From positions 1,410,001 to 1,442,000 of the forward strand of contig OX638337.1 in NCBI GenBank assembly GCA_951812855.1: a stretch of 32,000 nucleotides of DNA. Direction: 5' to 3'. This stretch comes from an uncultured Lentisphaeria bacterium (GTDB lineage: Bacteria; Verrucomicrobiota; Lentisphaeria; JABSQK01; JAJFLO01). Shown here in pieces: positions 5,874-32,000 of this stretch; positions within the stretch are counted from its first letter, which is position 1, and each line of letters begins with the position of its first letter. The position numbers and the translations under genes are program-made. Below the pieces are notes generated by a model. The model had not been told where the DNA came from. It worked only from the letters and a program-made list of their open reading frames with translations, and searched no databases.

Positions 5874-7669
5874 AACAGATTGTTAATGATGTATTCTCGT
5901 CGCTTTGGTGTATTTTGTCCCATAAAGAAACTTAGGATTTCCGGGACTTCATGAATTTTATCTACAGATACGTTGATCAGTCTGATATCGTCGCCAATAA
6001 ACTGACCAAATTCGTTTGGAGAAATTTCTCCTAATCCCTTAAAGCGTGTTATTTCAGGTGCCCCTCCAAGCTCTTCGATTGCCCGAAGACGTTCCTGATC
6101 ATCAAAGCAGTATATTGTTTTTTTCTTATTTCGAACACGGAACAATGGTGTTTCGAGGATAAATAGGTGTTCGGACAAGATAAGCTGTTCAAAATAATAG
6201 AGAAAGAATGTTAATAGAAGGTTGCGGATGTGCATCCCGTCATCATCAGCATCGGTAGCGATAATAACTTTTTCATATCTCAAACCTTCCAGTCCGTCTT
6301 CAATATTTAATGCCTTCATGACGCAGTAGAATTCGTCATTGCTAATAATAAGATCCCTCTTCTTGCCATAGCAATTGAGAGGTTTTCCTTTAAGAGCGAA
6401 TATTGCCTGCTTATACACATCGCGACAACTGACCATCGATCCGGCCGCGGACTCTCCCTCAGTTAAAAAAATCATGGTCTCAGCACCTTTTTCTGAATCA
6501 GAATTAAGATGATATTTGCAATCTTTGAGCTTTGGTATTTTCAGGGATAGTCTTTTTGCTTTTTCTCTGCTGGCTTTTTTTACCGCTTGAATCTCTTTTC
6601 GAACCTTTTCATTTTGTGCGATTTTTTCGATGATTAAATCAGCAACATCTGTATTCTTAAATAGATATTTTGTGATTATATCTCTTATTGTCGTGACCAG
6701 TTCCCCTCGAATTTCGCTGTTTCCAAGCTTATTTTTAGTTTGCGATTCAAAAATAGGGTCTTTCAGTTTAACTGATATCGCCCCGATAATTCCATTACGC
6801 ACATCGTCACCATCAAAACTCTTCCGGGCATATTCATTGACTCCTTTGAGTATACCCTCCCGAAATGCAGACTGATGAGTACCGCCATCATTCGTATACT
6901 GACCGTTGACAAAGGAATAGTACGTTTCTCCGAAATTGGCGGTATGGCAAAATGCAAATTCCAACATTTTATCTTTGTAGTGAATAATGTTGTATATTTT
7001 CTCGTCTTCGACCTTTTCCAGGATTAAATCGTGAAGTCCGTTTCTCGAATAGATTCGTTCTCTATTCAGATATAGGGAGAGTCCACTGTTGAGATAAGCA
7101 TAGTTCCACAGTTGCCGTCGGATCAATGCGATATTGAATTTGTATTTCTTAAATAGTTCTGCTGACGGTGTAAACGTAATCACAGTCCCGTCGGCTTCTT
7201 CGGTTTTCCCATCGGCTTCATTTGTTAAGCTGCCATCTGCAAATTCTGCACATTTGTACTTGCCCTTCCGAATTGCCTTAACCTGGAAGTTTTCAGAAAG
7301 GGCATTAACCGCCTTTGTACCCACCCCATTGAGTCCTACGGAAAACTGAAATACATCGGTATTGAACTTGGCACCGGTATTAATCTGAGAAACACAATCA
7401 ATGACTTTTCCCAGAGGAATCCCTCGCCCGTAATCTCGAATTGAGGCAACCTCTTCCTCAATATTGACTTCGATTTTTCTGCCGTATCCCATGATGAATT
7501 CGTCGATACCATTGTCGATCACTTCTTTTAGGAGGATATAAATACCGTCTTCGCTGTGCGAGCCGTTGCCCATACGGCCGACATACATGCCTGGACGCAG
7601 GCGAATATGTTCTAATGAGCTAAGTGTTTTTACCTTACTCTCATCGTAATTATGGGTATTGTCAGACAT
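5870..7669 (-). CDS. parE: Type IIA topoisomerase subunit B, topoisomerase IV ParE-like
   Basis: GHKL ATPase motifs 'LEHIRLRPGMYVG' and 'GLNGVGTKAVNALS'; Toprim 'LTEGESAAGS' and 'ATDADDDGMHI'. The 599-aa length fits ParE rather than GyrB. Confidence 0.8.
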   Translation of the reverse strand: MSDNTHNYDESKVKTLSSLEHIRLRPGMYVGRMGNGSHSEDGIYILLKEVIDNGIDEFIMGYGRKIEVNIEEEVASIRDYGRGIPLGKVIDCVSQINTGAKFNTDVFQFSVGLNGVGTKAVNALSENFQVKAIRKGKYKCAEFADGSLTNEADGKTEEADGTVITFTPSAELFKKYKFNIALIRRQLWNYAYLNSGLSLYLNRERIYSRNGLHDLILEKVEDEKIYNIIHYKDKMLEFAFCHTANFGETYYSFVNGQYTNDGGTHQSAFREGILKGVNEYARKSFDGDDVRNGIIGAISVKLKDPIFESQTKNKLGNSEIRGELVTTIRDIITKYLFKNTDVADLIIEKIAQNEKVRKEIQAVKKASREKAKRLSLKIPKLKDCKYHLNSDSEKGAETMIFLTEGESAAGSMVSCRDVYKQAIFALKGKPLNCYGKKRDLIISNDEFYCVMKALNIEDGLEGLRYEKVIIATDADDDGMHIRNLLLTFFLYYFEQLILSEHLFILETPLFRVRNKKKTIYCFDDQERLRAIEELGGAPEITRFKGLGEISPNEFGQFIGDDIRLINVSVDKIHEVPEILSFFMGQNTPKRREYIINNLL

Positions 7670-7775
7670 GTGCTTTTTTTATGGATAAATATCTATCGAA
7701 GCTATTACATTCTAAATCAGGCTAAATATTCACTGTAACCTATCCCGTAAAAAGTGTGACAGGGCAAGGGGATTT

Positions 7776-8612
7776 TTAAAAAAACCGTCTCTTCCCTTTG
7801 GGCATCACTGGATTGCCTTTCATTTGACCTTTGCCAGGTCTCTGTTTAGGTGGTTTTTCGAGGTGCAAAGAGTACCACTGTTCACCTAATCCGGCATTTG
7901 AAAAAAGATGAATTTTATTATTCGCGACATTTTGCCAGTTCCGATGTATCATTTCGTCATCGATTTTTTCCTTTGCCAATGTCAAAACTTCCAGGGCTCT
8001 GTCAATATCGTTTCGTTTTATTAATATCCATGCATATAAAGAATGGACAAGAATTCCTTTTTCGTATTTGAACTTTTTAATGCCCTTTTTATAGGTTTTA
8101 TCCAGATCAGGTGAGTTATTATGATATTGTCGAACCATTTTCATGCATAATGTCAATGGTTCTAAAACAAATATTTTCGGCATGAGTTTATCAGCTTCAT
8201 CAAATCGTTTTATTTGAAAATTCAACTGCATTTTCAGGGTGTTTATTTGACGTTCAGCGAATAAACTCCACTTGAACAGCGGGCGAATGGTTTCAAGGAC
8301 TTCAAGTGCCTTTATCACACCGGCTTCAACCTTCTTTTCGACATTTTTTTCCATCATCTTCTGTGACCCCGCCGGTTTACTTTGAAATCGGTTGATCATC
8401 TTAAACGCGTCATTTTGAGATTCAGTGAGCATTCCCTGGACCTGATTGACTACGGTTGTCAGCTTTTTCCCAAAATAACGATTTAAGATTATGGCAACAG
8501 TTAAAAAGGCGGCAATACCAATGGTGATTACCCACCCTGTGCTCTCAATTTTCAAACTGGCTATGCCTGAAAATAAAATTCCACAACTAACTGCAATTAT
8601 TAGGCTTAACAT
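7776..8612 (-). CDS. Hypothetical membrane protein (two N-terminal TM helices, helical repeat region, basic C-terminal tail)
   Basis: Long ORF with the hydrophobic N-terminus 'LIIAVSCGILFSGIA...WVITIGIAAFLTVAII'. I recognise no family. Confidence 0.55.
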   Translation of the reverse strand: MLSLIIAVSCGILFSGIASLKIESTGWVITIGIAAFLTVAIILNRYFGKKLTTVVNQVQGMLTESQNDAFKMINRFQSKPAGSQKMMEKNVEKKVEAGVIKALEVLETIRPLFKWSLFAERQINTLKMQLNFQIKRFDEADKLMPKIFVLEPLTLCMKMVRQYHNNSPDLDKTYKKGIKKFKYEKGILVHSLYAWILIKRNDIDRALEVLTLAKEKIDDEMIHRNWQNVANNKIHLFSNAGLGEQWYSLHLEKPPKQRPGKGQMKGNPVMPKGKRRFF

Positions 8613-24508: not shown

Positions 24509-26102
<1,594 letters not shown>

Positions 26103-26113
<11 letters not shown>

Positions 26114-27392
26114 GTGGACAGAAGGCACGTTAGCAGACATCGCAGAGGTGCTGATGGGACAATCACCTCCCGGAAAGGATTGCTCAAAAGAGCCAATTGG
26201 ACCGTCTTTATTGAACGGACCAACGGAGTTCGGCTCTCATTCGCCTGAGACAAGGCAATACACGGAAAACCCAAAGAGGATGTCTAAAGATGGCGACCTC
26301 TTGTTCTGCGTCCGGGGATCGATAGGAAGAATGAATTGGTCAGATCAAGAATACGCGATTGGCCGAGGACTCGCGGCCATTCGGCATAAGGATCCGGACT
26401 GCCAACAATATCTACGTGGTGTAATTGACTACCGATTGGACGAACTGCTTTCAGTAGCTACTGGGTCAACATTCCCAAACGTAAGCAGAAACCAAATCCT
26501 CGGAATTAAGGTAAACATCCCACCCCTACCCGAGCAGAAAGAGATTGCTCACATCCTGGGATCACTGGATGACAGGATTGAGTTGAATAACCGGATGAAT
26601 GCGACGCTCGAAGGAATGGCACAGGCACTTTTTAAGAGCTGGTTTGTGGACTTTGACCCGGTGATCGACAATGCCCTCGCCGCCGGCAATCCGATACCGC
26701 CTGCATTGCAGGCGAAGGCTGAATTAAGAATGCTGAATGCTGAATCAGAAAACTCCTCCACTCATCATTCATCACTTAGCACTCATCATTCTCTTTTCCC
26801 CGCCGCCTTCGAGTTCACCGAACAACTCGGCTGGATTCCCGAGGGGTGGGACGTCGCAAAAGCTGAAAACTTAGTTACTCGACACAAAGTAAAACAGAAG
26901 TTCACGAAGAAGAACGCGTTGAATGAAGGGCCGGTTCCGATTTTCGATCAAGGAGCAGGCCTTCTTTTGGGATATAGCGAACTTCCCGCTGACCAAGATT
27001 CCTCAAAAGAGAATCCCAGATTTATTTTCGGCGACCATACCTGCATTACCCACTTGTCGACCAAGCCCTTTTCAGTAGGCCCAAATGTAATTCCCCTTTC
27101 AGCGAAGACACATGCTCCTTACTGGACCTACTACGCGATTAAGGATATCCAAGAATTCCAAGAATACCGACGGCACTGGATGGAGTTCTCAATCAAAGAG
27201 ACCTTGCTGCCGTCACCGGAGTTAGTAGCTGTTTTCAACGACCACGCTAAAGAGTTTCGTGCGTCGATGGAGTTAAATGACGAGATGTCGAAGACTCTCG
27301 CTCGACTCCGCGATGTCCTTCTCCCGAAGCTCATTTCCGGTGAACTCCGTATCCCGAAAGCTGAACAACTCACAGAGGAAGCATTGGCATGA
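26103..27392 (+). CDS. hsdS: Type I restriction-modification specificity subunit (two TRDs)
   Basis: Conserved 'LPPLPEQKEIAHILGSLDDRIELN...LFKSWFVDFDPV' and C-terminal 'LRDVLLPKLISGELRI'. 11-nt overlap with hsdM. Confidence 0.9.
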
Positions 27393-29374
27393 TTGAGTTG
27401 CACACAATCGACGATATTGTTCTGTTGGCAGAATCCTCCGATCTCGAATGTAAACGTGCTGGAGGGAAGGATGGAAAAGGCGAGCTGCCCAGGGATTTTT
27501 GGAAGAGCTATTCTGCGATGGCCAACACCGACGGTGGCACCGTCTTGCTGGGAATAAAAGAGAGGGACGGGCAGTTTCAACTCGGCGGGCTCGAGCGAAT
27601 AGAAAAGATTAAAAAGGACCTGTTTGATACGGCTAACAACAAGGGTAAAGTCAGCGTCAACCTGCTCGCCAACAGCTCGGTCGACACGCTCACGATAGAT
27701 GGTATTTGCCTACTTAGAATTGATATCCGCCGGGCCGGCCGTGAAGAACGCCCTGTCTACCTGAACGGCAATCCCCTGGGGAACAGCTTTATTCGCAGGC
27801 ATGAGGCTGATCAGCGACTGTCGGATGAAGCCGTCAAGCGCATGCTCGCGGAACAAACCGAAGACAGTCGCGACACCAAAATCCTGAAAGGCTTCTTTCT
27901 GAATGATCTTTGCGAAGAGACCCTGCGCACTTACCGACAAGTATTTACCAACCGGCAGCCTGCCCACCCCTGGAACGGACTGGAGCTTTGCCCATTCTTA
28001 CAGCAAGTAGGAGCGTGGCGTACCGACCGTGAGACCGGTGAGCATGGGCTAACGGCTGCCGGGCTGCTCATGTTTGGTTACCACTCTACGATTCAGGAAG
28101 CGTATCCCAACTACATGCTCGACTACCAGGAGCGTCCGGAGGCAAAAACGGAGAACCGCTGGATTGACCGTATAACGCTTGATGGAACATGGTCGGGGAA
28201 TCTCTACGATTTCTACCGCAAAATCTATCCAAAGTTGACGGAGAGCTTAAAAACTCCCTTTGAGCTGCAGGACGATCAGCGTGTGGACGAGTCTCCGATC
28301 CACGTTGCGATTCGTGAAGCGCTTTGCAATGTATTGGTGCATGCCGACTATTCGGACCGTTGCTCGGTATTGGTCGTCAAACGGCCTGATTTATTCGGAT
28401 TTCGCAATCCGGGTCTGATGCGTATCCCGGTCGACTTTGCACTTCGTGGCGGCAGCCCGGACTGCCGCAATCGAAATTTGCACCAAATGTTCCGTTATGT
28501 AGGTATCGGCGATCAGGCAGGCTCCGGCATCCCAAAAATCATGAAGTCCTGGTATGATTGCCACTGGCGCCCTCCTGAACTTATGGATAGACGAGAACCC
28601 TATGATCAAACTATCCTGCGGATGCGAATGATCGACCTGTTCCCGCAAAAATTGGTGCAAGAACTCGAATTGAAATTTGGGGAGCGCTATCAGGAACTTT
28701 TACATATCGAACGGGTGGCATTGGCGATCGCAGCAGTCGAAGAGATCGTAACCCATCAGCGTCTATATGCTCTGGCCGGAGGACACCCTGCGGGTGCGAG
28801 TCGCTGCCTCAGGAGTCTCGTCGAAAAGGGGTTCCTGGAACAAACAGGCAGCAGTCGAGGTGCAGTTTACCACATTTTGGGTGCCAGAATCCCAGGCCCC
28901 GAAGATGTCTTTGATTCTTCTGATTTCGCCGGGAGCTCCCCGATTAGTGAGAACAGGTCCCTGATTAGTGGACCGAGCTCCCCGATTAGTGAGGACAGCT
29001 TGTCAATTAGCAACACTGATACTGAAAGCTCCCTGCGTAATGTCGATGGGCTTGTGATGTCGCCCTTACACGATTTGCCGTTCGTCGACGATATGGAAGC
29101 ACTCTCCAACTCATATCGAGCTCAACTGAAACAACTTGCAAGCGAACCCAGAACCAGGAAACGCCTAAAACGGGAGCTAATGCAAGGCGTTTTAGAGTCT
29201 CTGACTACCGGGCATTATATTACGATCGCGTGCTTGTCTGAACTCACAAAGCGAGATCCCGAAAGCCTAAGGCAACTATACTTAACCAAAATGGTGAGGG
29301 AAGGAACCCTGGATATCGCATTTCCCCGCACACCAAACGATCCGCGCCAAGCATATACAAAAGCTCGAAGATGA
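27389..29374 (+). CDS. AlbA_2 (Schlafen-like, divergent AAA_4) plus HATPase_c_4 plus wHTH protein, often annotated as a RecG-like or putative transcriptional regulator
   Basis: 'ESSDLECKRAGG...SYSAMANTDGGTVLLGIKE' (AlbA_2), 'AIREALCNVLVHADYS...FRNPG...RNRNLHQMF...GSGIPKI' (HATPase_c_4) and C-terminal wHTH-like segments. ATGA overlap with hsdS. Confidence 0.8.
   Translation: MIELHTIDDIVLLAESSDLECKRAGGKDGKGELPRDFWKSYSAMANTDGGTVLLGIKERDGQFQLGGLERIEKIKKDLFDTANNKGKVSVNLLANSSVDTLTIDGICLLRIDIRRAGREERPVYLNGNPLGNSFIRRHEADQRLSDEAVKRMLAEQTEDSRDTKILKGFFLNDLCEETLRTYRQVFTNRQPAHPWNGLELCPFLQQVGAWRTDRETGEHGLTAAGLLMFGYHSTIQEAYPNYMLDYQERPEAKTENRWIDRITLDGTWSGNLYDFYRKIYPKLTESLKTPFELQDDQRVDESPIHVAIREALCNVLVHADYSDRCSVLVVKRPDLFGFRNPGLMRIPVDFALRGGSPDCRNRNLHQMFRYVGIGDQAGSGIPKIMKSWYDCHWRPPELMDRREPYDQTILRMRMIDLFPQKLVQELELKFGERYQELLHIERVALAIAAVEEIVTHQRLYALAGGHPAGASRCLRSLVEKGFLEQTGSSRGAVYHILGARIPGPEDVFDSSDFAGSSPISENRSLISGPSSPISEDSLSISNTDTESSLRNVDGLVMSPLHDLPFVDDMEALSNSYRAQLKQLASEPRTRKRLKRELMQGVLESLTTGHYITIACLSELTKRDPESLRQLYLTKMVREGTLDIAFPRTPNDPRQAYTKARR
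28933..28998 (+). repeat. Tandem duplication: 24-nt cores at 28933-28956 and 28975-28998 (23/24 identical, 42-nt period) on a degenerate 21-nt/7-aa repeat
   Basis: GAGCTCCCCGATTAGTGAG[A/G]ACAG occurs twice and encodes 'SSPISEN RSLISGP SSPISED SLSISNT'. Confidence 0.8.
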
Positions 29375-29412
29375 AATTCACCGAAGCCGAATCTGCAATT
29401 TTTAAAAGATGA
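29371..29412 (+). pseudogene. Remnant of an hsdR 5' end (MKFTEAESAIFKR*)
   Basis: ATGAAATTCACCGAAG is 15/16 identical to the real hsdR start at 31002-31017, and both overlap the preceding stop codon as ATGA. The remnant peptide resembles hsdR 'MKFTEGQLEAAII'. Confidence 0.6.
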
Positions 29413-29425
29413 TGGAGGATAAATT

Positions 29426-29518
29426 ATGAGTGATGAATTAAAGAAGATTCAGTTTTCAGCAATCGTCATTCACTGCAGTGTTCTCTACGCTGAAAATATA
29501 GCTGAGGAGACATTTTAA
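29426..29518 (+). CDS. Candidate 30-codon small ORF or leader peptide (MSDELKKIQFSAIVIHCSVLYAENIAEETF)
   Basis: GGAGG lies 7 nt upstream of the ATG, the strongest SD-like site I noted in the island. The TAA stop abuts the next ATG (TAAATG). Confidence 0.3.
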   Translation: MSDELKKIQFSAIVIHCSVLYAENIAEETF

Positions 29519-30544
29519 ATGAAAAAAGATCTCACCACCTCTCACATCGATCGACAAAATATTCTGAATAACCCATATGCACTTTCTGAAATTGAAAAAG
29601 CGGCAGGAATCAAAGGTATTTCCTTTGAAGGGAAATCTGTAGTATTGAAGGAACAAATCGCACTGTTTTTTGAAGTCACACCGCGAACCGTTGATAATTA
29701 TCTGGAGAAAAACGCCTCAGAATTGCAACAGAATGGTTACGAGGTTCTCAAAGGTAACCGATTGAAAGCTATCAAGTTAGCGATTCAGCAATCCGATGTT
29801 CACGAAAGAGATTTCGTGAACATAAATAAAAGCGCCCAATTGGGGGTCTTCGATATTCGTGCTTTTCTCAATCTGGCTATGTTGATGTGCGAATCCGAAC
29901 GTGCCGGTCTGCTTCGCAAGGCAATTCTTGATATCGTGATTGATACGATTAATCAGCGAACAGGCGGTGGTACGAAATACATCAATCAACGCGATGAAGA
30001 ATTCATCCAATCCGCGTTTGTCGAAGAGAATTACCGTAAACAATTCACCGATGCCCTTGATCATTGTATTGACATGGGAAAAATCAAATACGCAATTTAC
30101 ACCGATAAGATTTATATCAGTATCTTTAAGGAAAAATCTCAGGAGTACCGGAAAATTTTGAAGTTATCAAATCGAGACAGCCTGCGTGATACCTTCTACT
30201 CAGAAGTGCTTGACCTCATCGCATCTTACGAATGTGGCTTTGCTGATATTCTGGAAGACGCTTTCAGGAACAAAGGTCGAAAGCTTACGAACTGGGAAGT
30301 CGACCGTCTATTTAAGAAATTCGAGAAGCAGGCTCACTGGAAGCCGCTCATTGAAAAAGCTCGTAACAAAATGGCCAGCCGTGACCTGGTTTTTCGTGAT
30401 GCTCTTCATCTCCAGTTAAAAGACTGTATAACGCCACTTCAGCGGGATGAATTCGAACGATTCCTCGGGGAGAAAAGTCAAGAACTTGCCGAACGTCTTG
30501 ACGAAGCCGGGGATGTATTGAAACGCCTCAAGGAGCGCGAGTAA
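29519..30544 (+). CDS. 341-aa putative HTH DNA-binding protein of unrecognised family, translationally coupled to the Doc gene
   Basis: HTH-like 'LKEQIALFFEVTPRTVDNYLEKN', and 'LGVFDIRAFLNLAMLM.SERA' reminiscent of Bro-N/ORF6N/DinD-type proteins. The stop overlaps the Doc start (TAATG). Confidence 0.6.
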   Translation: MKKDLTTSHIDRQNILNNPYALSEIEKAAGIKGISFEGKSVVLKEQIALFFEVTPRTVDNYLEKNASELQQNGYEVLKGNRLKAIKLAIQQSDVHERDFVNINKSAQLGVFDIRAFLNLAMLMCESERAGLLRKAILDIVIDTINQRTGGGTKYINQRDEEFIQSAFVEENYRKQFTDALDHCIDMGKIKYAIYTDKIYISIFKEKSQEYRKILKLSNRDSLRDTFYSEVLDLIASYECGFADILEDAFRNKGRKLTNWEVDRLFKKFEKQAHWKPLIEKARNKMASRDLVFRDALHLQLKDCITPLQRDEFERFLGEKSQELAERLDEAGDVLKRLKERE

Positions 30545-31005
30545 TGGGTTTTGTCTATCTCACCCTTGAACAAGCAATCGATATCCATGCTCTGACGGTG
30601 GATAAGAGCGGCGGCGGTGAAAAAGGGCATCTTGAAATAGGGAATTTGGAATCTGTCCTGGATAATATCCAAAATGATGACTACTACCCCACCTTTGATG
30701 CCAAACTTACCCATCTATTTCATTCAGCCTGTAAATTTCATTGTTTTCAAGATGGAAACAAGCGGATTGCCATTACGCTTTGTGTCAGGATGTTAATAGA
30801 TAATGGGTACTTAAGGAGTATTAATGGCTTTATCCAAAAATCAGAAAACATCAGCTACCATGTTGCAGCCGGAGTAATTTCTAAAGAACTTCTCGGCGAG
30901 TGGATGTTAGCCATATTGACAGGTGAAGAAGAGGATGAGTCATTGAAATTGAAAATTTTGAACGCAGTCACACAAGAATCTAAGTCCGAAGAATACAACT
31001 CATGA
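30544..31005 (+). CDS. doc: Fic/Doc-family toxin (death-on-curing type)
   Basis: 'VYLTLEQAIDIH' start and the Fido active-site motif 'HCFQDGNKRIA' (HxFx[D/N][A/G]NKR). The 153-aa size is typical of Doc. Confidence 0.85.
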   Translation: MGFVYLTLEQAIDIHALTVDKSGGGEKGHLEIGNLESVLDNIQNDDYYPTFDAKLTHLFHSACKFHCFQDGNKRIAITLCVRMLIDNGYLRSINGFIQKSENISYHVAAGVISKELLGEWMLAILTGEEEDESLKLKILNAVTQESKSEEYNS

Positions 31006-32000
31006 AATTCACTGAAGGGCAACTTGAAGCTGCTATCATCGAACTTCTCGGAGAGGAGGGCTACCCGCATGTATTGGGTAAGACGATTGAGCGTCAACGG
31101 CAGGAGGTGTTGATCAAGGCAGATTTAAATGAATTTTTGGCGAAAAAGTATGCAAAAGACGGGATTACGCCAGGTGAAATTGATTCGGTGATTCACCAGT
31201 TGGAAGCTTACTCTGCATCCGATCTTTACGAGAGCAATAAGGCAATCATGAAGCTGGTCTCAGATGGCTTTCTGCTGAAGCGGGAAGATCACACCCGGAA
31301 GGACCTGTATATTCAGCTGATCGATTATTCAGACTTAGCGGCGTTTCGGGAACCGAAGGAGGGGGAGATTCCGCATATTCTTGCAGATGATTCGGAGACT
31401 TATAAAAGAAAACTGAACATTTTCAAGATCGTCAATCAGCTGGAGATCGTCGGTCACGAAACTCGCATCCCTGACGGCATTCTCTATATCAACGGCCTGC
31501 CTCTGGTGGTGTTTGAGTTCAAGAGTGCGATCCGCGAGGAGACAACGATTCACGATGCCTTCCTGCAGCTTACCAACTGCTACAGGCGCGACATCCCGGA
31601 ACTGTTTAAATACAATGCACTTTGCGTGATCAGCGACGGGGTGAATAACAAGGTGGGTTCGTTTTTCGCATCATACGAATTCTTCTATGGATGGCGGAAG
31701 ACGGATGGCAGCGACCTGATCGAGAAAGACGGGATCGACTCGCTCTATTCGATGATTAAAGGACTGTTTCATCCGACCCGCCTCTGTGATGTGATCCGAA
31801 ATTTCGTTTACTTTCCTGATACTTCCCGGAAGGAGGAGAAGATCCTTTGCCGGTATCCCCAATATTACGCGGCGACGAAGTTGTATCGAAATATATTGCA
31901 GCATATGTGTCCCGAGGGCGATGGTAAGGGCGGCACGTATTTTGGGGCGACAGGCTGCGGCAAGAGTTTTACCATGTTGTTCCTGGTGCGACTGTTGATG
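31002..32000 (+). CDS. hsdR: Type I restriction enzyme R subunit, N-terminal part (333 codons, open at the window end; absent from the ORF track)
   Basis: My translation gives 'MKFTEGQLEAAIIELLGEEGYP...', the nuclease core 'PDGILYINGLPLVVFEFKS' and Walker A 'GATGCGKSFT'. ATGA overlap with the doc stop. Confidence 0.9.
   Translation, partial: MKFTEGQLEAAIIELLGEEGYPHVLGKTIERQRQEVLIKADLNEFLAKKYAKDGITPGEIDSVIHQLEAYSASDLYESNKAIMKLVSDGFLLKREDHTRKDLYIQLIDYSDLAAFREPKEGEIPHILADDSETYKRKLNIFKIVNQLEIVGHETRIPDGILYINGLPLVVFEFKSAIREETTIHDAFLQLTNCYRRDIPELFKYNALCVISDGVNNKVGSFFASYEFFYGWRKTDGSDLIEKDGIDSLYSMIKGLFHPTRLCDVIRNFVYFPDTSRKEEKILCRYPQYYAATKLYRNILQHMCPEGDGKGGTYFGATGCGKSFTMLFLVRLLM

Follow-up and report, generated by a model that had tools for sequence, protein, structure and literature searches.

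A type I restriction-modification (R-M) operon in the window (the whole stretch of 32,000 nucleotides analysed here) carries two copies of the start of its restriction gene, hsdR, one functional and one orphaned, and the 1.6-kb segment that they bracket (29387-31001, 41.2% GC) holds a two-gene candidate defence cassette, PDC-M59. The account that we favour, with a probability of about 0.78, is that the left-hand 16 to 18 nt are an orphaned hsdR start at a former AlbA_2/hsdR junction, and that the PDC-M59 segment recombined in from another operon and was stacked behind AlbA_2. The features concerned are the following.

24509 to 26113, + strand: hsdM, methyltransferase subunit (Pfam N6_Mtase 4.8e-103, HsdM_N 2.7e-23)
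26103 to 27392, + strand: hsdS, specificity subunit (Pfam Methylase_S 3.7e-20)
27389 to 29374, + strand: AlbA_2 (Schlafen-like) and HATPase_c_4 protein of 661 aa, the first embedded cassette (Pfam SLFN_AlbA_2 1.1e-10, HATPase_c_4 2.4e-06)
29371 to 29388, + strand: hsdR stump, the orphaned first 18 nt (6 codons) of hsdR, containing the left repeat copy (identity to hsdR starts of relatives)
29371 to 29412, + strand: 13-codon ORF opened by the stump, MKFTEAESAIFKR and a stop (translation)
29389 to 29488, + strand: AT-rich seam DNA of ~100 nt (local alignments, MAFFT)
29426 to 29518, + strand: 30-codon ORF, MSDELKKIQFSAIVIHCSVLYAENIAEETF and a stop (ORF list; tblastn)
29489 to 29518, + strand: relic of a donor hsdS 3' end, GCTGAAAATATAGCTGAGGAGACATTTTAA, reading AENIAEETF and a stop (alignment to the hsdS terminus of locus L088, AEKLIEETI and a stop)
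29519 to 30544, + strand: PDC-M59A (M59A), 341 aa, mostly helical, with an N-terminal winged-helix-like module (PADLOC PDC-M59A 1.1e-96, full length)
30544 to 31005, + strand: PDC-M59B (Doc), 153-aa Doc/Fic-family protein (PADLOC PDC-M59B 7.5e-34; Pfam Fic 1.5e-10)
31002 to 31017, + strand: right repeat copy, the functional hsdR start (sequence and repeat search)
31002 to 32000, + strand: hsdR, cut at the window end (Pfam HSDR_N 1.8e-31)

The operon is compact: hsdS, whose product ends in LRDVLLPKLISGELRIPKAEQLTEEALA, overlaps hsdM at one end and shares an ATGA with the AlbA_2 start at the other, and M59A and Doc overlap as TAATG. The full hsdR of locus L001 encodes 1074 aa with ResIII, SWI2_SNF2 and T1RH-like_C domains, and the host genes tig-clpP-clpX follow hsdR. 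A sequence-only reading of the window had reported two 16-mers, each overlapping the preceding stop as ATGA, and this was confirmed: ATGAAATTCACCGAAG (29371-29386), at the AlbA_2 stop, and ATGAAATTCACTGAAG (31002-31017), at the Doc stop, match at 15 of 16 positions, the single difference being C/T at position 12. The repeat starts precisely at the ATG; neither upstream of it (p 0.27-0.70) nor past about +21 (p 0.06-0.5) are the two copies significantly similar. The left copy does open a dead frame, MKFTEAESAIFKR, that resembles the hsdR N-terminus, MKFTEGQLEAAIIE. From the end of this frame, 13 nt that include a GGAGG lead to the ATG of the 30-codon ORF; the stump ORF may act as a translational-coupling relay. 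The content read between the copies, namely the GGAGG Shine-Dalgarno site, the 30-codon ORF, the 341-aa gene and doc, is all present.

Judged on the alignments, the decisive point is one of position: the left copy occupies the very site of the hsdR start in relatives that lack the cassette, and is identical to that start over 18 nt. The direct AlbA_2/hsdR junction predicted from the window alone exists in L005, L006 and L007 (AlbA_2 69% identical), where the AlbA_2 stop and the hsdR start share a GTGA; L004 (AlbA_2 76% identical) has a 2-nt gap between the two genes. In all four loci hsdR begins (A/G)TGAAATTCACCGAAGCC, 18 nt that are identical in the left copy. Compared with other hsdR starts, the stump is identical at 18/18 positions in the empty loci L004 and L005 and at 17/17 in L088, and the left copy, when extended, matches the L004 start at 20 of 21 positions. 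The 16-mer is conserved, with 0-1 mismatch, in 44 of 80 members of the hsdR family; on this comparison it is the family-conserved hsdR start and, for that reason, not a target-site duplication made at insertion.

The other side of the seam points to a donor. In the closest relatives of M59A (L088 and L089, 82% identity), an hsdS of the same family is followed by TAATG, M59A, Doc and TCATGAAATTCACCGAAGCACAACTTGAAGCAGCCATC, with an hsdR that begins MKFTEAQLEAAII, so that the right-hand Doc/ATGA/hsdR junction is already present in L088. In the window, the 30-codon ORF is unique to this lineage (tblastn matches only in L001-L003); its final 10 codons consist of the hsdS relic, and its TAA immediately precedes the M59A ATG. 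The alignment score of these last 30 nt with the L088 hsdS terminus was reached by 0 of 3000 shuffles, and AEKL..EE.. is the C-terminal HsdS motif of the family in operons without any cassette. The preceding 29389-29488 shows a weak collinear (MAFFT) but non-significant similarity to hsdS 3' regions (local alignments, p ~0.1); an HsdS-tail HMM finds nothing there, and this stretch is assigned neither to hsdS nor to another source.

Thus the suggestion that the repeat marks the scar of a cassette gained at the 5' end of hsdR is supported by the empty loci, by the other contexts of the cassette (see below) and by the hsdS relic. We propose that AlbA_2-ATGA-hsdR was once a direct junction, where the stump remains, and that ~1.6 kb recombined in from a same-family type I R-M operon arranged hsdS-M59A-Doc-ATGA-hsdR. 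The origin in another operon is argued from the empty relatives, the usual place of the cassette 5' of an R gene, the L088-type arrangement and the hsdS relic. The incoming segment would have comprised, from left to right, the donor hsdS 3' relic with the ~100 nt of seam DNA, PDC-M59 and the conserved hsdR start. On the right, resolution would have used the homology between hsdR 5' ends, whose nucleotide sequence is conserved family-wide, while the left joint, of hsdR +18 to +21 with foreign DNA, would be illegitimate. The outcome would be two embedded cassettes stacked in one operon with an hsdR-stump/hsdS-relic seam between them, the frames staying chained through overlapping or abutting stops and starts. 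As to direction and path, an out-of-register crossover between operons, a Campbell-type insertion of a circularised fragment or a one-sided homology-facilitated illegitimate recombination could each have led there; a base-by-base reconstruction is impossible, because the nearest M59A is only 82% identical and there is no close donor. The window hsdR is 77% identical to that of L005 overall (residues 1-50 76%, 51-100 82%) and has no mosaic break in this comparison; a donor-derived 5' tract must accordingly be very short, or else cannot be demonstrated.

Such stumps recur. Of 80 metagenomic operons whose hsdR belongs to the family of the window gene, 11 carry 14 extra hsdR starts (~0.005 expected by chance; the control gave 1 match in 900 kb), invariably on the same strand and 856-3368 nt 5' of the real start. 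Between loci, stumps differ in length from 16 to 196 nt, the repeats in these operons measuring 27-196 nt, and each is the 5' terminus of the R gene that lies downstream. The cassettes that stumps separate include RhuM, AlbA_2, AbiEi/AbiEii, deaminase, YhcG and UvrD; the gene directly 5' of the stump was another embedded gene in all scorable cases and hsdS in none. An independent case was found in a Nitrospira metagenome-assembled genome with a different hsdR family (L014), in the order hsdM-hsdS-RhuM-ATGA-[hsdR stump]-[hsdS 3' relic]-...-M59A-Doc-ATGA-hsdR; its stump is identical to the functional hsdR 5' end at 111 of 125 nt, and the stump/relic joint falls inside a 10-nt microhomology, AAGCTCGCCG. 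A third case (L043) reads RhuM-ATGA-res stump-M59A-Doc-res stub. On these comparisons, the event in the window is one instance of a recurrent stacking architecture.

The search for the cassette elsewhere, which the sequence-only reading had proposed, found M59A homologues (68-82% identity) in many other contexts across many phyla. In 80 genome loci, the genes for M59A and Doc are next to each other almost without exception, and most M59A homologues sit between hsdS and hsdR or mod and res. The 5' neighbour, in 64 scorable loci, was type III Mod in 22, HsdS in 16, HsdM in 3 and a BREX component in ~4; the 3' neighbour was a ResIII/DEAD R subunit in 23 of 43, and the Doc stop frequently overlaps the R-gene start as ATGA. 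PDC-M59 was absent from all 80 metagenomic operons with an hsdR of the window's family, and the proposed donor type is therefore rare. M59A matches no Pfam family; its AlphaFold model (pLDDT 89, pTM 0.82) has no PDB match at E<=0.001, the best being DdrC (E 0.04), and the protein probably binds DNA. PDC-M59B carries the Doc-type motif HCFQDGNKR, scores slightly under the cut-off of TIGR01550 (4.9e-09) and aligns with phage P1 Doc (3K33, E 0.006) across the motif. A candidate function for the pair would be a toxin-based defence, of the abortive-infection or guard type, acting alongside the R-M system.

Composition was part of the original argument. The hand counts of GC were exact (36.7% at 29581-29640, against 53.3% at 28441-28500 and 55.0% at 31441-31500), and by gene hsdM has 54.8% GC, hsdS 49.5%, AlbA_2 52.0% and hsdR 49.0% (48.5% for the part of hsdR visible in the window), against 34.5% for the stump plus leader (29371-29518), 42.6% for M59A and 40.0% for Doc. 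At third codon positions (GC3), hsdM, hsdS and AlbA_2 have 52-71%, the cassette 41-44% and the stump plus leader 29%. The cassette thus differs from both flanks, as claimed, but the surrounding chromosome itself is only 37-39% GC, so that the whole R-M operon is a high-GC alien and the cassette is nearer to the host. The GC step shows differing histories of cassette and operon, and is no sign that the cassette is the more foreign to the genome.

In the alternative that survives best, the polarity is reversed: hsdS-M59A-Doc-hsdR would be resident, and AlbA_2 with a trailing hsdR start would have come in, or a single deletion, beginning at hsdR +18 in the upstream operon and stopping at the hsdS 3' end in its neighbour, would have fused two adjacent operons, PDC-M59 not being the mover. 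The seam is symmetrical, an hsdR stump and an hsdS relic being what one out-of-register crossover or an inter-operon deletion would leave, hsdR lacks a recombination break, and similarities among relatives are already discordant (AlbA_2 is closest to L004, hsdM and hsdR to L005). On the other hand, the GC3 of hsdR (60.5%) groups it with hsdM, hsdS and AlbA_2, not with the cassette or the stump plus leader, and the genes of the donor-type L088 operon are uniformly ~44% GC. For a random deletion, it would be improbable to have one end-point no more than 21 nt from the hsdR start and the other no more than ~130 nt from the hsdS end; stumps, nevertheless, are generally short. Taken together, the two versions seem to us rather improbable.

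Transposition or site-specific integration, in which a cassette enzyme made a 16-nt target-site duplication or used an attachment site, is very unlikely, even though direct repeats flank the insert exactly and the R-M islands of L005-L007 adjoin a phage-type integrase. The cassette encodes no transposase, integrase or recombinase by Pfam, TIGRFAM-type profile or PADLOC matches, and terminal inverted repeats are absent; the repeat varies in length as the downstream gene start, and the L014 joint is an hsdR/hsdS microhomology. Flanking direct repeats are not general at PDC-M59 loci: among 63 with both flanks compared, the best matches, that in the window locus and a low-complexity one in L053, each scored 13, against 12 for the top control.

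A coincidental 16-mer between ancestral genes is least likely of all, being contradicted by the empty loci (18/18 at the orthologous start) and by the recurrence of stumps in the 80 operons, as well as by the unrelated contexts of the cassette and its composition. The match had been thought unlikely by chance, and this holds for the specific 16-mer (0.08 matches with <=2 mismatches expected in the whole window) but not for a blind search, in which a direct pair of at least 15/16 arises somewhere in 8% of shuffles of the 5 kb from 27000 to 32000, so that the unanchored match is only marginal; many imperfect 14-17-nt repeats lie nearby. Neither a consistent lack of AlbA_2-hsdR junctions in relatives nor a shared history of the cassette with hsdS and hsdR, which had been named as signs of an ancestral arrangement, was found, because the empty junction exists, the cassette occurs in many contexts and its composition is unlike both flanks.

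Like phage P1 Phd-Doc, the PDC-M59 pair couples a protein with a Fic/Doc signature (H-x-F-x-D-G-N-K-R) tightly, through TAATG, to a 5' partner gene. Unlike Phd, the partner is a 341-aa helical protein without a Phd/YefM or other Pfam signature, for which no solved structural relative was found; the pair is embedded in R-M operons, not in a plasmid or prophage, and its Doc is slightly below the TIGR01550 cut-off.

The operons also recall integron arrays, in which promoterless, co-oriented cassettes, each bounded by a repeat copy, are stacked at one docking point 5' of a fixed gene; excision and insertion via the repeat would account for both arrays and empty sites. Unlike an integron, the window has no integrase or attC-like structure, and the site is the hsdR coding start, of variable extent; exchange would therefore rest on general or microhomology-mediated recombination.

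A further parallel is that of the Vibrio cholerae T6SS effector-immunity modules, whose arrays of orphan modules are made by displacement, with homology-facilitated illegitimate recombination as the proposed mechanism (Kirchberger et al. 2017, PMC5361080). In these, as in Rhs and CDI toxin tips, entry is by recombination anchored in a conserved gene segment, and older material is shifted and leaves truncated remnants. They are, however, anchored in the conserved 5' body of the toxin gene and displace 3' tips and immunity genes, whereas in the window the repeated anchor would be the very beginning of the restriction gene that lies downstream; complete cassettes accumulate 5' of an intact hsdR without displacement, and the relics are gene starts of 16-196 nt, some joined to hsdS tails.

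The classical example of an embedded defence gene is PrrC, within the EcoprrI hsdMSR locus. PADLOC phage defence candidates, of which PDC-M59 is one of 145, come from guilt-by-embedding in type I R-M, BREX and DISARM operons; 96.7% of embedded genes are co-oriented with the host system, and back-up defence was raised as a rationale (Payne et al. 2024, bioRxiv 10.1101/2024.01.29.577857). The name PDC-M59 occurs in no searchable paper. Payne et al. termed the significance of embedding unexplored; how embedding happens is not addressed there, and the word "recombination" is absent from their text. AlbA_2 and PDC-M59 are likewise both embedded and co-oriented within the hsdMSR operon. What sets the window apart is a physical scar of the embedding; there is evidence that such scars separate stacked cassettes, and their recurrence in related operons shows how R-M operons collect extra defence genes.

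The start of hsdR occurs twice in the window's type I restriction-modification (R-M) operon, once at the head of the functional gene and once as an orphan directly behind the gene for the AlbA_2 protein. The features concerned are the following.

24509-26113, forward strand: hsdM
26103-27392, forward strand: hsdS
27389-29374, forward strand: AlbA_2/HATPase_c_4 gene (661 aa), here called AlbA_2
29371-29386, forward strand: left copy of the hsdR start (the stump runs to 29388)
29371-29518, forward strand: seam, that is, the stump plus a leader between AlbA_2 and M59A
29519-30544, forward strand: M59A (341 aa), first gene of the PDC-M59 cassette
30544-31005, forward strand: doc (M59B, 153 aa), second gene of the cassette
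31002-31017, forward strand: right copy, the functional start of hsdR

The sequence-only reading had described two 16-mers that differ at one base, each overlapping as ATGA the stop codon of the gene before it, the left copy that of AlbA_2 and the right copy that of the Doc/Fic gene, and had taken the right copy for the hsdR start; all of this was confirmed. Indeed, the left copy opens a dead frame, MKFTEAESAIFKR followed by a stop, to be compared with the hsdR N-terminus MKFTEGQLEAAIIE, and a GGAGG, a 30-codon ORF, the 341-aa gene and doc lie between the two copies. The hand counts of GC content, made on short samples of the cassette and of its two flanks, were exact on recount (36.7, 53.3 and 55.0%). 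Taken as a blind pair the match is marginal, pairs identical at 15 or more of 16 positions turning up in 8% of shuffles of 27000-32000; it is meaningful because of its position and its homology. Neither of two longer repeats was significant: continuation of the stump past +21 by way of a 6-nt deletion (MKFTEA[QL]ESAI) gave p values of 0.06-0.5, and extension 5' of the ATG, as in a longer target duplication including the 3' end of AlbA_2, gave 0.27-0.70. No promoter or terminator signals, RNA families or tRNAs rose above chance in or near the seam.

The complete operon, carried by the metagenome contig L001, reads hsdM-hsdS-AlbA_2-[13-codon stump ORF]-[30-codon ORF]-341 aa-Doc-hsdR. Its hsdM, hsdS and hsdR genes are intact and co-oriented (Pfam N6_Mtase/HsdM_N, Methylase_S and HSDR_N), and the full-length HsdR of 1074 aa has ResIII, SWI2_SNF2 and T1RH-like_C domains. 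Nearly all junctions are overlapping or abutting stops and starts. Together, the stump ORF and the 30-codon ORF link the AlbA_2 stop to the M59A start in an unbroken chain of short frames, an arrangement that may preserve translational coupling. The chromosome has 37-39% GC and the R-M operon 49-55%, and the whole operon is therefore an island; it lies between a SHOCT/Imm_superinfect gene and tig-clpP-clpX (from about 24400 to the end of the window; 7121-16838 in L001), and no integrase or tRNA was found near it. An exact copy of the AlbA_2 gene is present on two contigs (29 kb and 18 kb) of the ENA metagenome assembly ERZ18545485, which also holds a 99%-identical copy on a 1.94-Mb contig.

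Three observations concern the surroundings. On either side of hsdS, the contigs L001 and L003, which come from one metagenome assembly, show 99-99.5% identity; the hsdS genes themselves (26103-27392 in the window, 8715-10004 in L001, 8793-10004 in L003) can be aligned only in the central conserved region (89% identity) and at both ends, the two target-recognition domains being completely different. Co-existing strains appear to have swapped specificity while keeping hsdM, AlbA_2, the cassette and hsdR unchanged. Within AlbA_2, the C-terminal part contains a 24-nt direct repeat (28933-28956 and 28975-28998, 23/24 identical, 42 nt apart) from which the peptide SSPISE(N/D) is encoded twice; conservation of this stretch is poor (32-56% identity with L004 and L005, two cassette-free operons, over the last three 50-column alignment blocks). 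Finally, a search of 5.8 billion proteins gave no more than three relatives of the host trigger factor (L001 17550-18878) with over 40% identity, and its nearest named relative, from a Lentisphaeria bacterium, is 35% identical; the host belongs to a poorly sampled lineage, with about 1.94 Mb as its longest contig.

If the left copy is an orphaned hsdR start, related operons might be expected in which AlbA_2 meets hsdR directly, as the sequence-only reading had predicted, and such empty junctions were found. AlbA_2 has thousands of homologues, and the closest ones on long contigs belong to hsdM-hsdS-AlbA_2-hsdR operons, with AlbA_2 directly 5' of hsdR. The two genes overlap as GTGA in three of these operons (L005, L006 and L007; AlbA_2 69% identity), and a 2-nt spacer precedes hsdR in a fourth (L004; 76%). 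The hsdR gene of all four begins (A/G)TGAAATTCACCGAAGCCCAACT. The left copy of the window is identical to these starts over 18 nt (20/21 against L004), after which divergence is complete. The left copy therefore represents the first six hsdR codons at the ancestral AlbA_2/hsdR junction.

The closest M59A relative (82% identity, L088/L089) belongs to a type I operon, and this operon and that of the window are of one family. In L088, hsdS terminates in ...LRDTLLPKLISGEMRIPEAEKLIEETI and a stop, M59A and Doc follow, and the Doc stop overlaps hsdR in TCATGAAATTCACCGAAGCACAACTTGAAGCAGCCATC (MKFTEAQLEAAII), the same Doc/ATGA/hsdR junction as in the window, so that the right junction of the window pre-exists in the cassette's own lineage. 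The 30 nt immediately 5' of the window's M59A, GCTGAAAATATAGCTGAGGAGACATTTTAA (AENIAEETF-stop), align with the L088 hsdS terminus (AEKLIEETI-stop), with a score that none of 3000 shuffles reaches; AEKL..EE.. is the ordinary HsdS C-terminus in cassette-free operons of the window's R-M family. The 30-codon ORF, or at least its end, is therefore a relic of the donor hsdS. The idea that the whole 130-nt leader is an hsdS tail was rejected, the last 30 nt alone being significant; the remaining 100 nt or so give a p of about 0.1 against hsdS DNA, and an HMM of the HsdS tail finds nothing in them. GC content is 34.5% in the stump-plus-leader (29371-29518), 42.6% in M59A and 40.0% in Doc, against 54.8% in hsdM, 49.5% in hsdS, 52.0% in AlbA_2 and 49.0% in hsdR; the L088 operon is uniform, at about 44%. 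This composition agrees with the import of a segment into a different operon. No closer M59A donor was found in 5.8 billion proteins, the best non-self match being the one at 82%.

An hsdR start is orphaned at the old junction, and the incoming DNA stems from an hsdS-cassette-hsdR arrangement. On the right, the junction consists of the family-conserved hsdR start, a segment of donor/recipient homology such as accompanies an illegitimate-recombination scar, and the novel joint is that of hsdR +18 to +21 with unrelated DNA. An out-of-register crossover could have joined the hsdR 5' end of one operon to the hsdS 3' end of a related one; a circularised fragment could have inserted in the Campbell manner via the hsdR start; or homology on one side alone could have facilitated an illegitimate recombination, a mechanism proposed for T6SS effector-immunity arrays (PMC5361080). 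The recombination path is one that we infer, and all three routes would lead to the same product. On grounds of composition, it is more likely that a short segment was inserted into a resident AlbA_2 operon than that two whole operons were fused. A mosaic hsdR with a donor-derived 5' tract was rejected, the identity and GC3 profiles running without a break; because hsdR shows no mosaic break and no close donor is at hand, our preference for insertion is a tentative one.

The window is not an isolated case. A metagenome scan with HsdR residues 1-400 yielded 80 operons of the same hsdR family, in which the hsdR start (first 16 nt) is conserved at the DNA level and not just in the peptide MKFTE: ATGAAATTCACCGAAG is exact in 17/80 and one base off in 27/80. 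These 44 loci keep the motif despite about 62-83% identity over the first 400 HsdR residues in the set (L090-L169). The DNA upstream of each hsdR was then scanned with the locus's own first 18 nt, allowing at most 2 mismatches. Fourteen extra hsdR starts were detected in 11 of the 80 loci, always on the coding strand and 856-3368 nt upstream; the control, made on reverse strands and downstream DNA, gave 1 match in 900 kb, and the chance expectation is about 0.005. The repeats are 27-196 nt long. The two extra copies in L092 agree with the 5' end of the functional hsdR along 162 and 196 nt, with 92% identity, and no locus has more than two stumps, that is, three copies of the hsdR start including the functional one.

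Classical embedded genes lying between copies of the hsdR start, with the loci of the 80-operon set in which they occur
RhuM: L092, L116, L147, L163
AlbA_2+HATPase_c_4: L126, L136, L145, L154
DUF6088/AbiEi+AbiEii: L124, L135, L147
Deaminase-HATPase_c_4 fusion: L092

Where it could be scored, the gene just 5' of a stump is itself an embedded one, encoding RhuM, AbiEii, YhcG, UvrD or an AAA ATPase, and is never hsdS; in L163 it encodes an unknown 230-aa protein following hsdS. Its stop usually overlaps the stump ATG. Short stumps are tiny ORFs (MKFTEEKLGKAI, MKFTEEKLELI, MKFTEEKLENA and MKFTEEKSRK, each closed by a stop) whose stop overlaps the ATG of the next gene. The same junction is common to cassettes of one type, so that either a stump is passed on along with its cassette or recombination has a hot spot around GAAGAAAAATTAGA; it is speculative that this motif, which encodes E-E-K-L, resembles the A-E-K-L of the HsdS tail. 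At 2356-2962 of L163, two hsdR stumps stand 606 nt apart with no ORF between them, and after the first comes an AlbA_2-type start (ATGACCGAAAACAAAAACATAGAATTCAAACAA), which seems to belong to a decayed AlbA_2 cassette within the array. The window is one more member of this series, in the order AlbA_2, stump, hsdS relic, PDC-M59, hsdR.

Stumps separate stacked cassettes in many operons, and one joint lies at a microhomology. It is found in a Nitrospira defluvii metagenome-assembled genome (L014), in an hsdR family other than that of the window, where the operon reads hsdM-hsdS-RhuM-ATGA-[hsdR stump]-[hsdS 3' relic]-about 240 nt-[second hsdS relic]-M59A-Doc-ATGA-hsdR. The stump is identical to the functional hsdR 5' end at 111/125 nt, and it meets the relic within 10 nt of microhomology, AAGCTCGCCG, common to hsdR (codons about 60-63) and the hsdS tail. 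This is direct evidence for microhomology-mediated joining of the hsdR 5' region to the hsdS 3' end. The stretch 7494-8000 of L014 holds two hsdS-tail relics (about 7645-7709 and 7945-7980), as might be left by repeated insertion or by the loss of a cassette. Another PDC-M59 locus, L043, reads RhuM-ATGA-res stump (MKLHLNPNLG)-M59A-Doc-res stub.

Both proteins of the cassette are recognized by PADLOC. M59A matches PDC-M59A (E 1.1e-96, residues 3-340 on profile positions 2-335 of 338), and the adjacent, co-oriented Doc, whose gene begins at the last base of the M59A stop codon, matches PDC-M59B (E 7.5e-34). PDCs are candidates for phage defence, as yet untested, whose defining feature is that they are embedded in type I R-M, BREX and DISARM loci (10.1101/2024.01.29.577857); the name 'PDC-M59' is absent from the searchable literature. 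The Doc motif HxFx(D/N)(A/G)NKR is present as HCFQDGNKR, aligned to H.F.DANKR of phage P1 Doc. The protein passes the Pfam Fic cut-off (42.2 bits against 24) and scores 36.4 bits with NCBIfam TIGR01550 (DOC_P1), under the curated cut-off of 38.65. Unlike Phd-Doc, the cassette has no small Phd/YefM-type antitoxin upstream, the partner being a protein of 341 aa. M59A has no Pfam family, no PDB sequence match and no significant fold match. Its AlphaFold model (29519-30541; pLDDT 89, pTM 0.82) is mainly helical, with a small N-terminal winged-helix-like unit, and finds no match at E<=0.001 among 350,000 PDB chains, the best being the DNA-binding protein DdrC (E 0.04, TM 0.27-0.41). A distant relationship to RhuM was rejected (hhalign probability 2%, with an alignment limited to the helix-turn-helix stretch). 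The family comprises at least 6970 proteins at E<1e-30 in a clustered database, or 1024 representatives at 50% clustering. M59A is 68-80% identical in Verrucomicrobiota, Planctomycetota, Nitrospirota, Proteobacteria, Desulfobacterota and others, which argues for frequent horizontal transfer; identities of 68-82% over very distant phyla are also an unusually strong conservation for a defence-associated gene. We infer that PDC-M59 may be a Doc-type translation toxin restrained by M59A, providing a toxin-based defence beside or behind R-M, like PrrC in EcoprrI.

Doc comes directly after M59A almost without exception (80 genome loci). On the upstream side, 22 of the 64 scorable loci have a type III Mod next to the cassette, 16 have HsdS, 3 have HsdM and about 4 have a BREX component; on the downstream side, 23/43 have a ResIII/DEAD restriction subunit, and the Doc stop overlaps the R-gene start as ATGA in many loci. 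After Doc in L020 (9469-9677), the first 32 codons of hsdR are fused to its last 39, nearly all of the restriction gene being internally deleted and PDC-M59 intact. Cassette GC is below that of the flanks by 3.6 points on average, and lower in 53/63 loci (Wilcoxon 1e-8). Flanking direct repeats are not general to PDC-M59: the best among 63 two-flank loci are the window and a low-complexity match in L053 (flank-to-flank scores of 13 each, the highest control reaching 12), and when 29 loci, including 23 with PDC-M59 from the genome collection, were scanned strictly for 18-mers, only the window and one spurious match came up. PDC-M59 stands upstream of the window's hsdR family in 0/80 loci of the JGI metagenomes. 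R-gene-start stubs of 21-44 codons occur downstream of the cassette in L009, L010, L019, L020 and L037, and S/Mod-tail stubs of 26-79 codons upstream of it in L010, L020, L029, L030, L035 and L081. Such stub-flanked cassettes fit a unit travelling with short pieces of its R-M neighbours; alternatively, the stubs could come from in-place decay of R-M genes.

We tentatively propose, with a probability of about 0.4, that the extreme 5' end of the restriction-subunit gene is a docking site for defence cassettes, which would be added, and possibly removed, by homology or microhomology recombination, leaving stumps behind and forming recombinase-independent, integron-like arrays. RhuM, AlbA_2/Schlafen-like, AbiE, PDC-M59 and other cassettes would travel with short homology arms targeting R-M operons, and in some events a short stretch resembling the hsdS 3' tail may play a part too. 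Each stacking event would leave an R-start stump between cassettes, sometimes fused to an hsdS-tail relic, and translation of the array would stay coupled to hsdR through the stump ORFs that are kept.

R-M, BREX and similar operons have many defence systems nested in them. Guilt-by-embedding has made a discovery method of this, and how and why genes embed is an open question (10.1101/2024.01.29.577857). The window holds the readable scar of one embedding event, and related loci show the scar to be recurrent, which argues that operons of one R-M family exchange embedded cassettes and that these stack at the conserved R-gene start. Orphaned R-gene starts can serve as a simple signature with which to delimit cassettes, find new embedded candidates and order the acquisitions in an array. 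The locus also yields testable hypotheses on how stump ORFs might couple translation, and it puts PDC-M59, a pair with a Doc-type toxin, directly 5' of hsdR, in type I and type III systems. PDC-M59 as a catalogued candidate and embedding as a phenomenon are already known; in the part of the literature covered, where an earlier description may have escaped us, we found none of the orphaned R-gene start as the seam of stacked embedded cassettes, or of its recurrence.

Among known systems, a transposon or insertion sequence with target-site duplication does not fit, the operon having no transposase, recombinase or integrase domains and no terminal inverted repeats. As for integrons, a scan of the operon proteins, from hsdM to hsdR, gave no integrase domain, and a general search for repeats showed no structured inverted repeat at the cassette ends. 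The closest conceptual precedent is found in the displacement, or orphan, arrays of Rhs, CDI and T6SS loci. As in those, one module follows another, and a conserved segment of the anchoring gene is copied at the boundary of each. The two kinds of array differ in the gene end that is repeated and in the remnants: unlike in Rhs, CDI and T6SS arrays, a new module has not pushed an older 3' toxin tip or immunity gene to its downstream side; here the cassettes pile up 5' of an intact hsdR, and only 5' gene starts remain.
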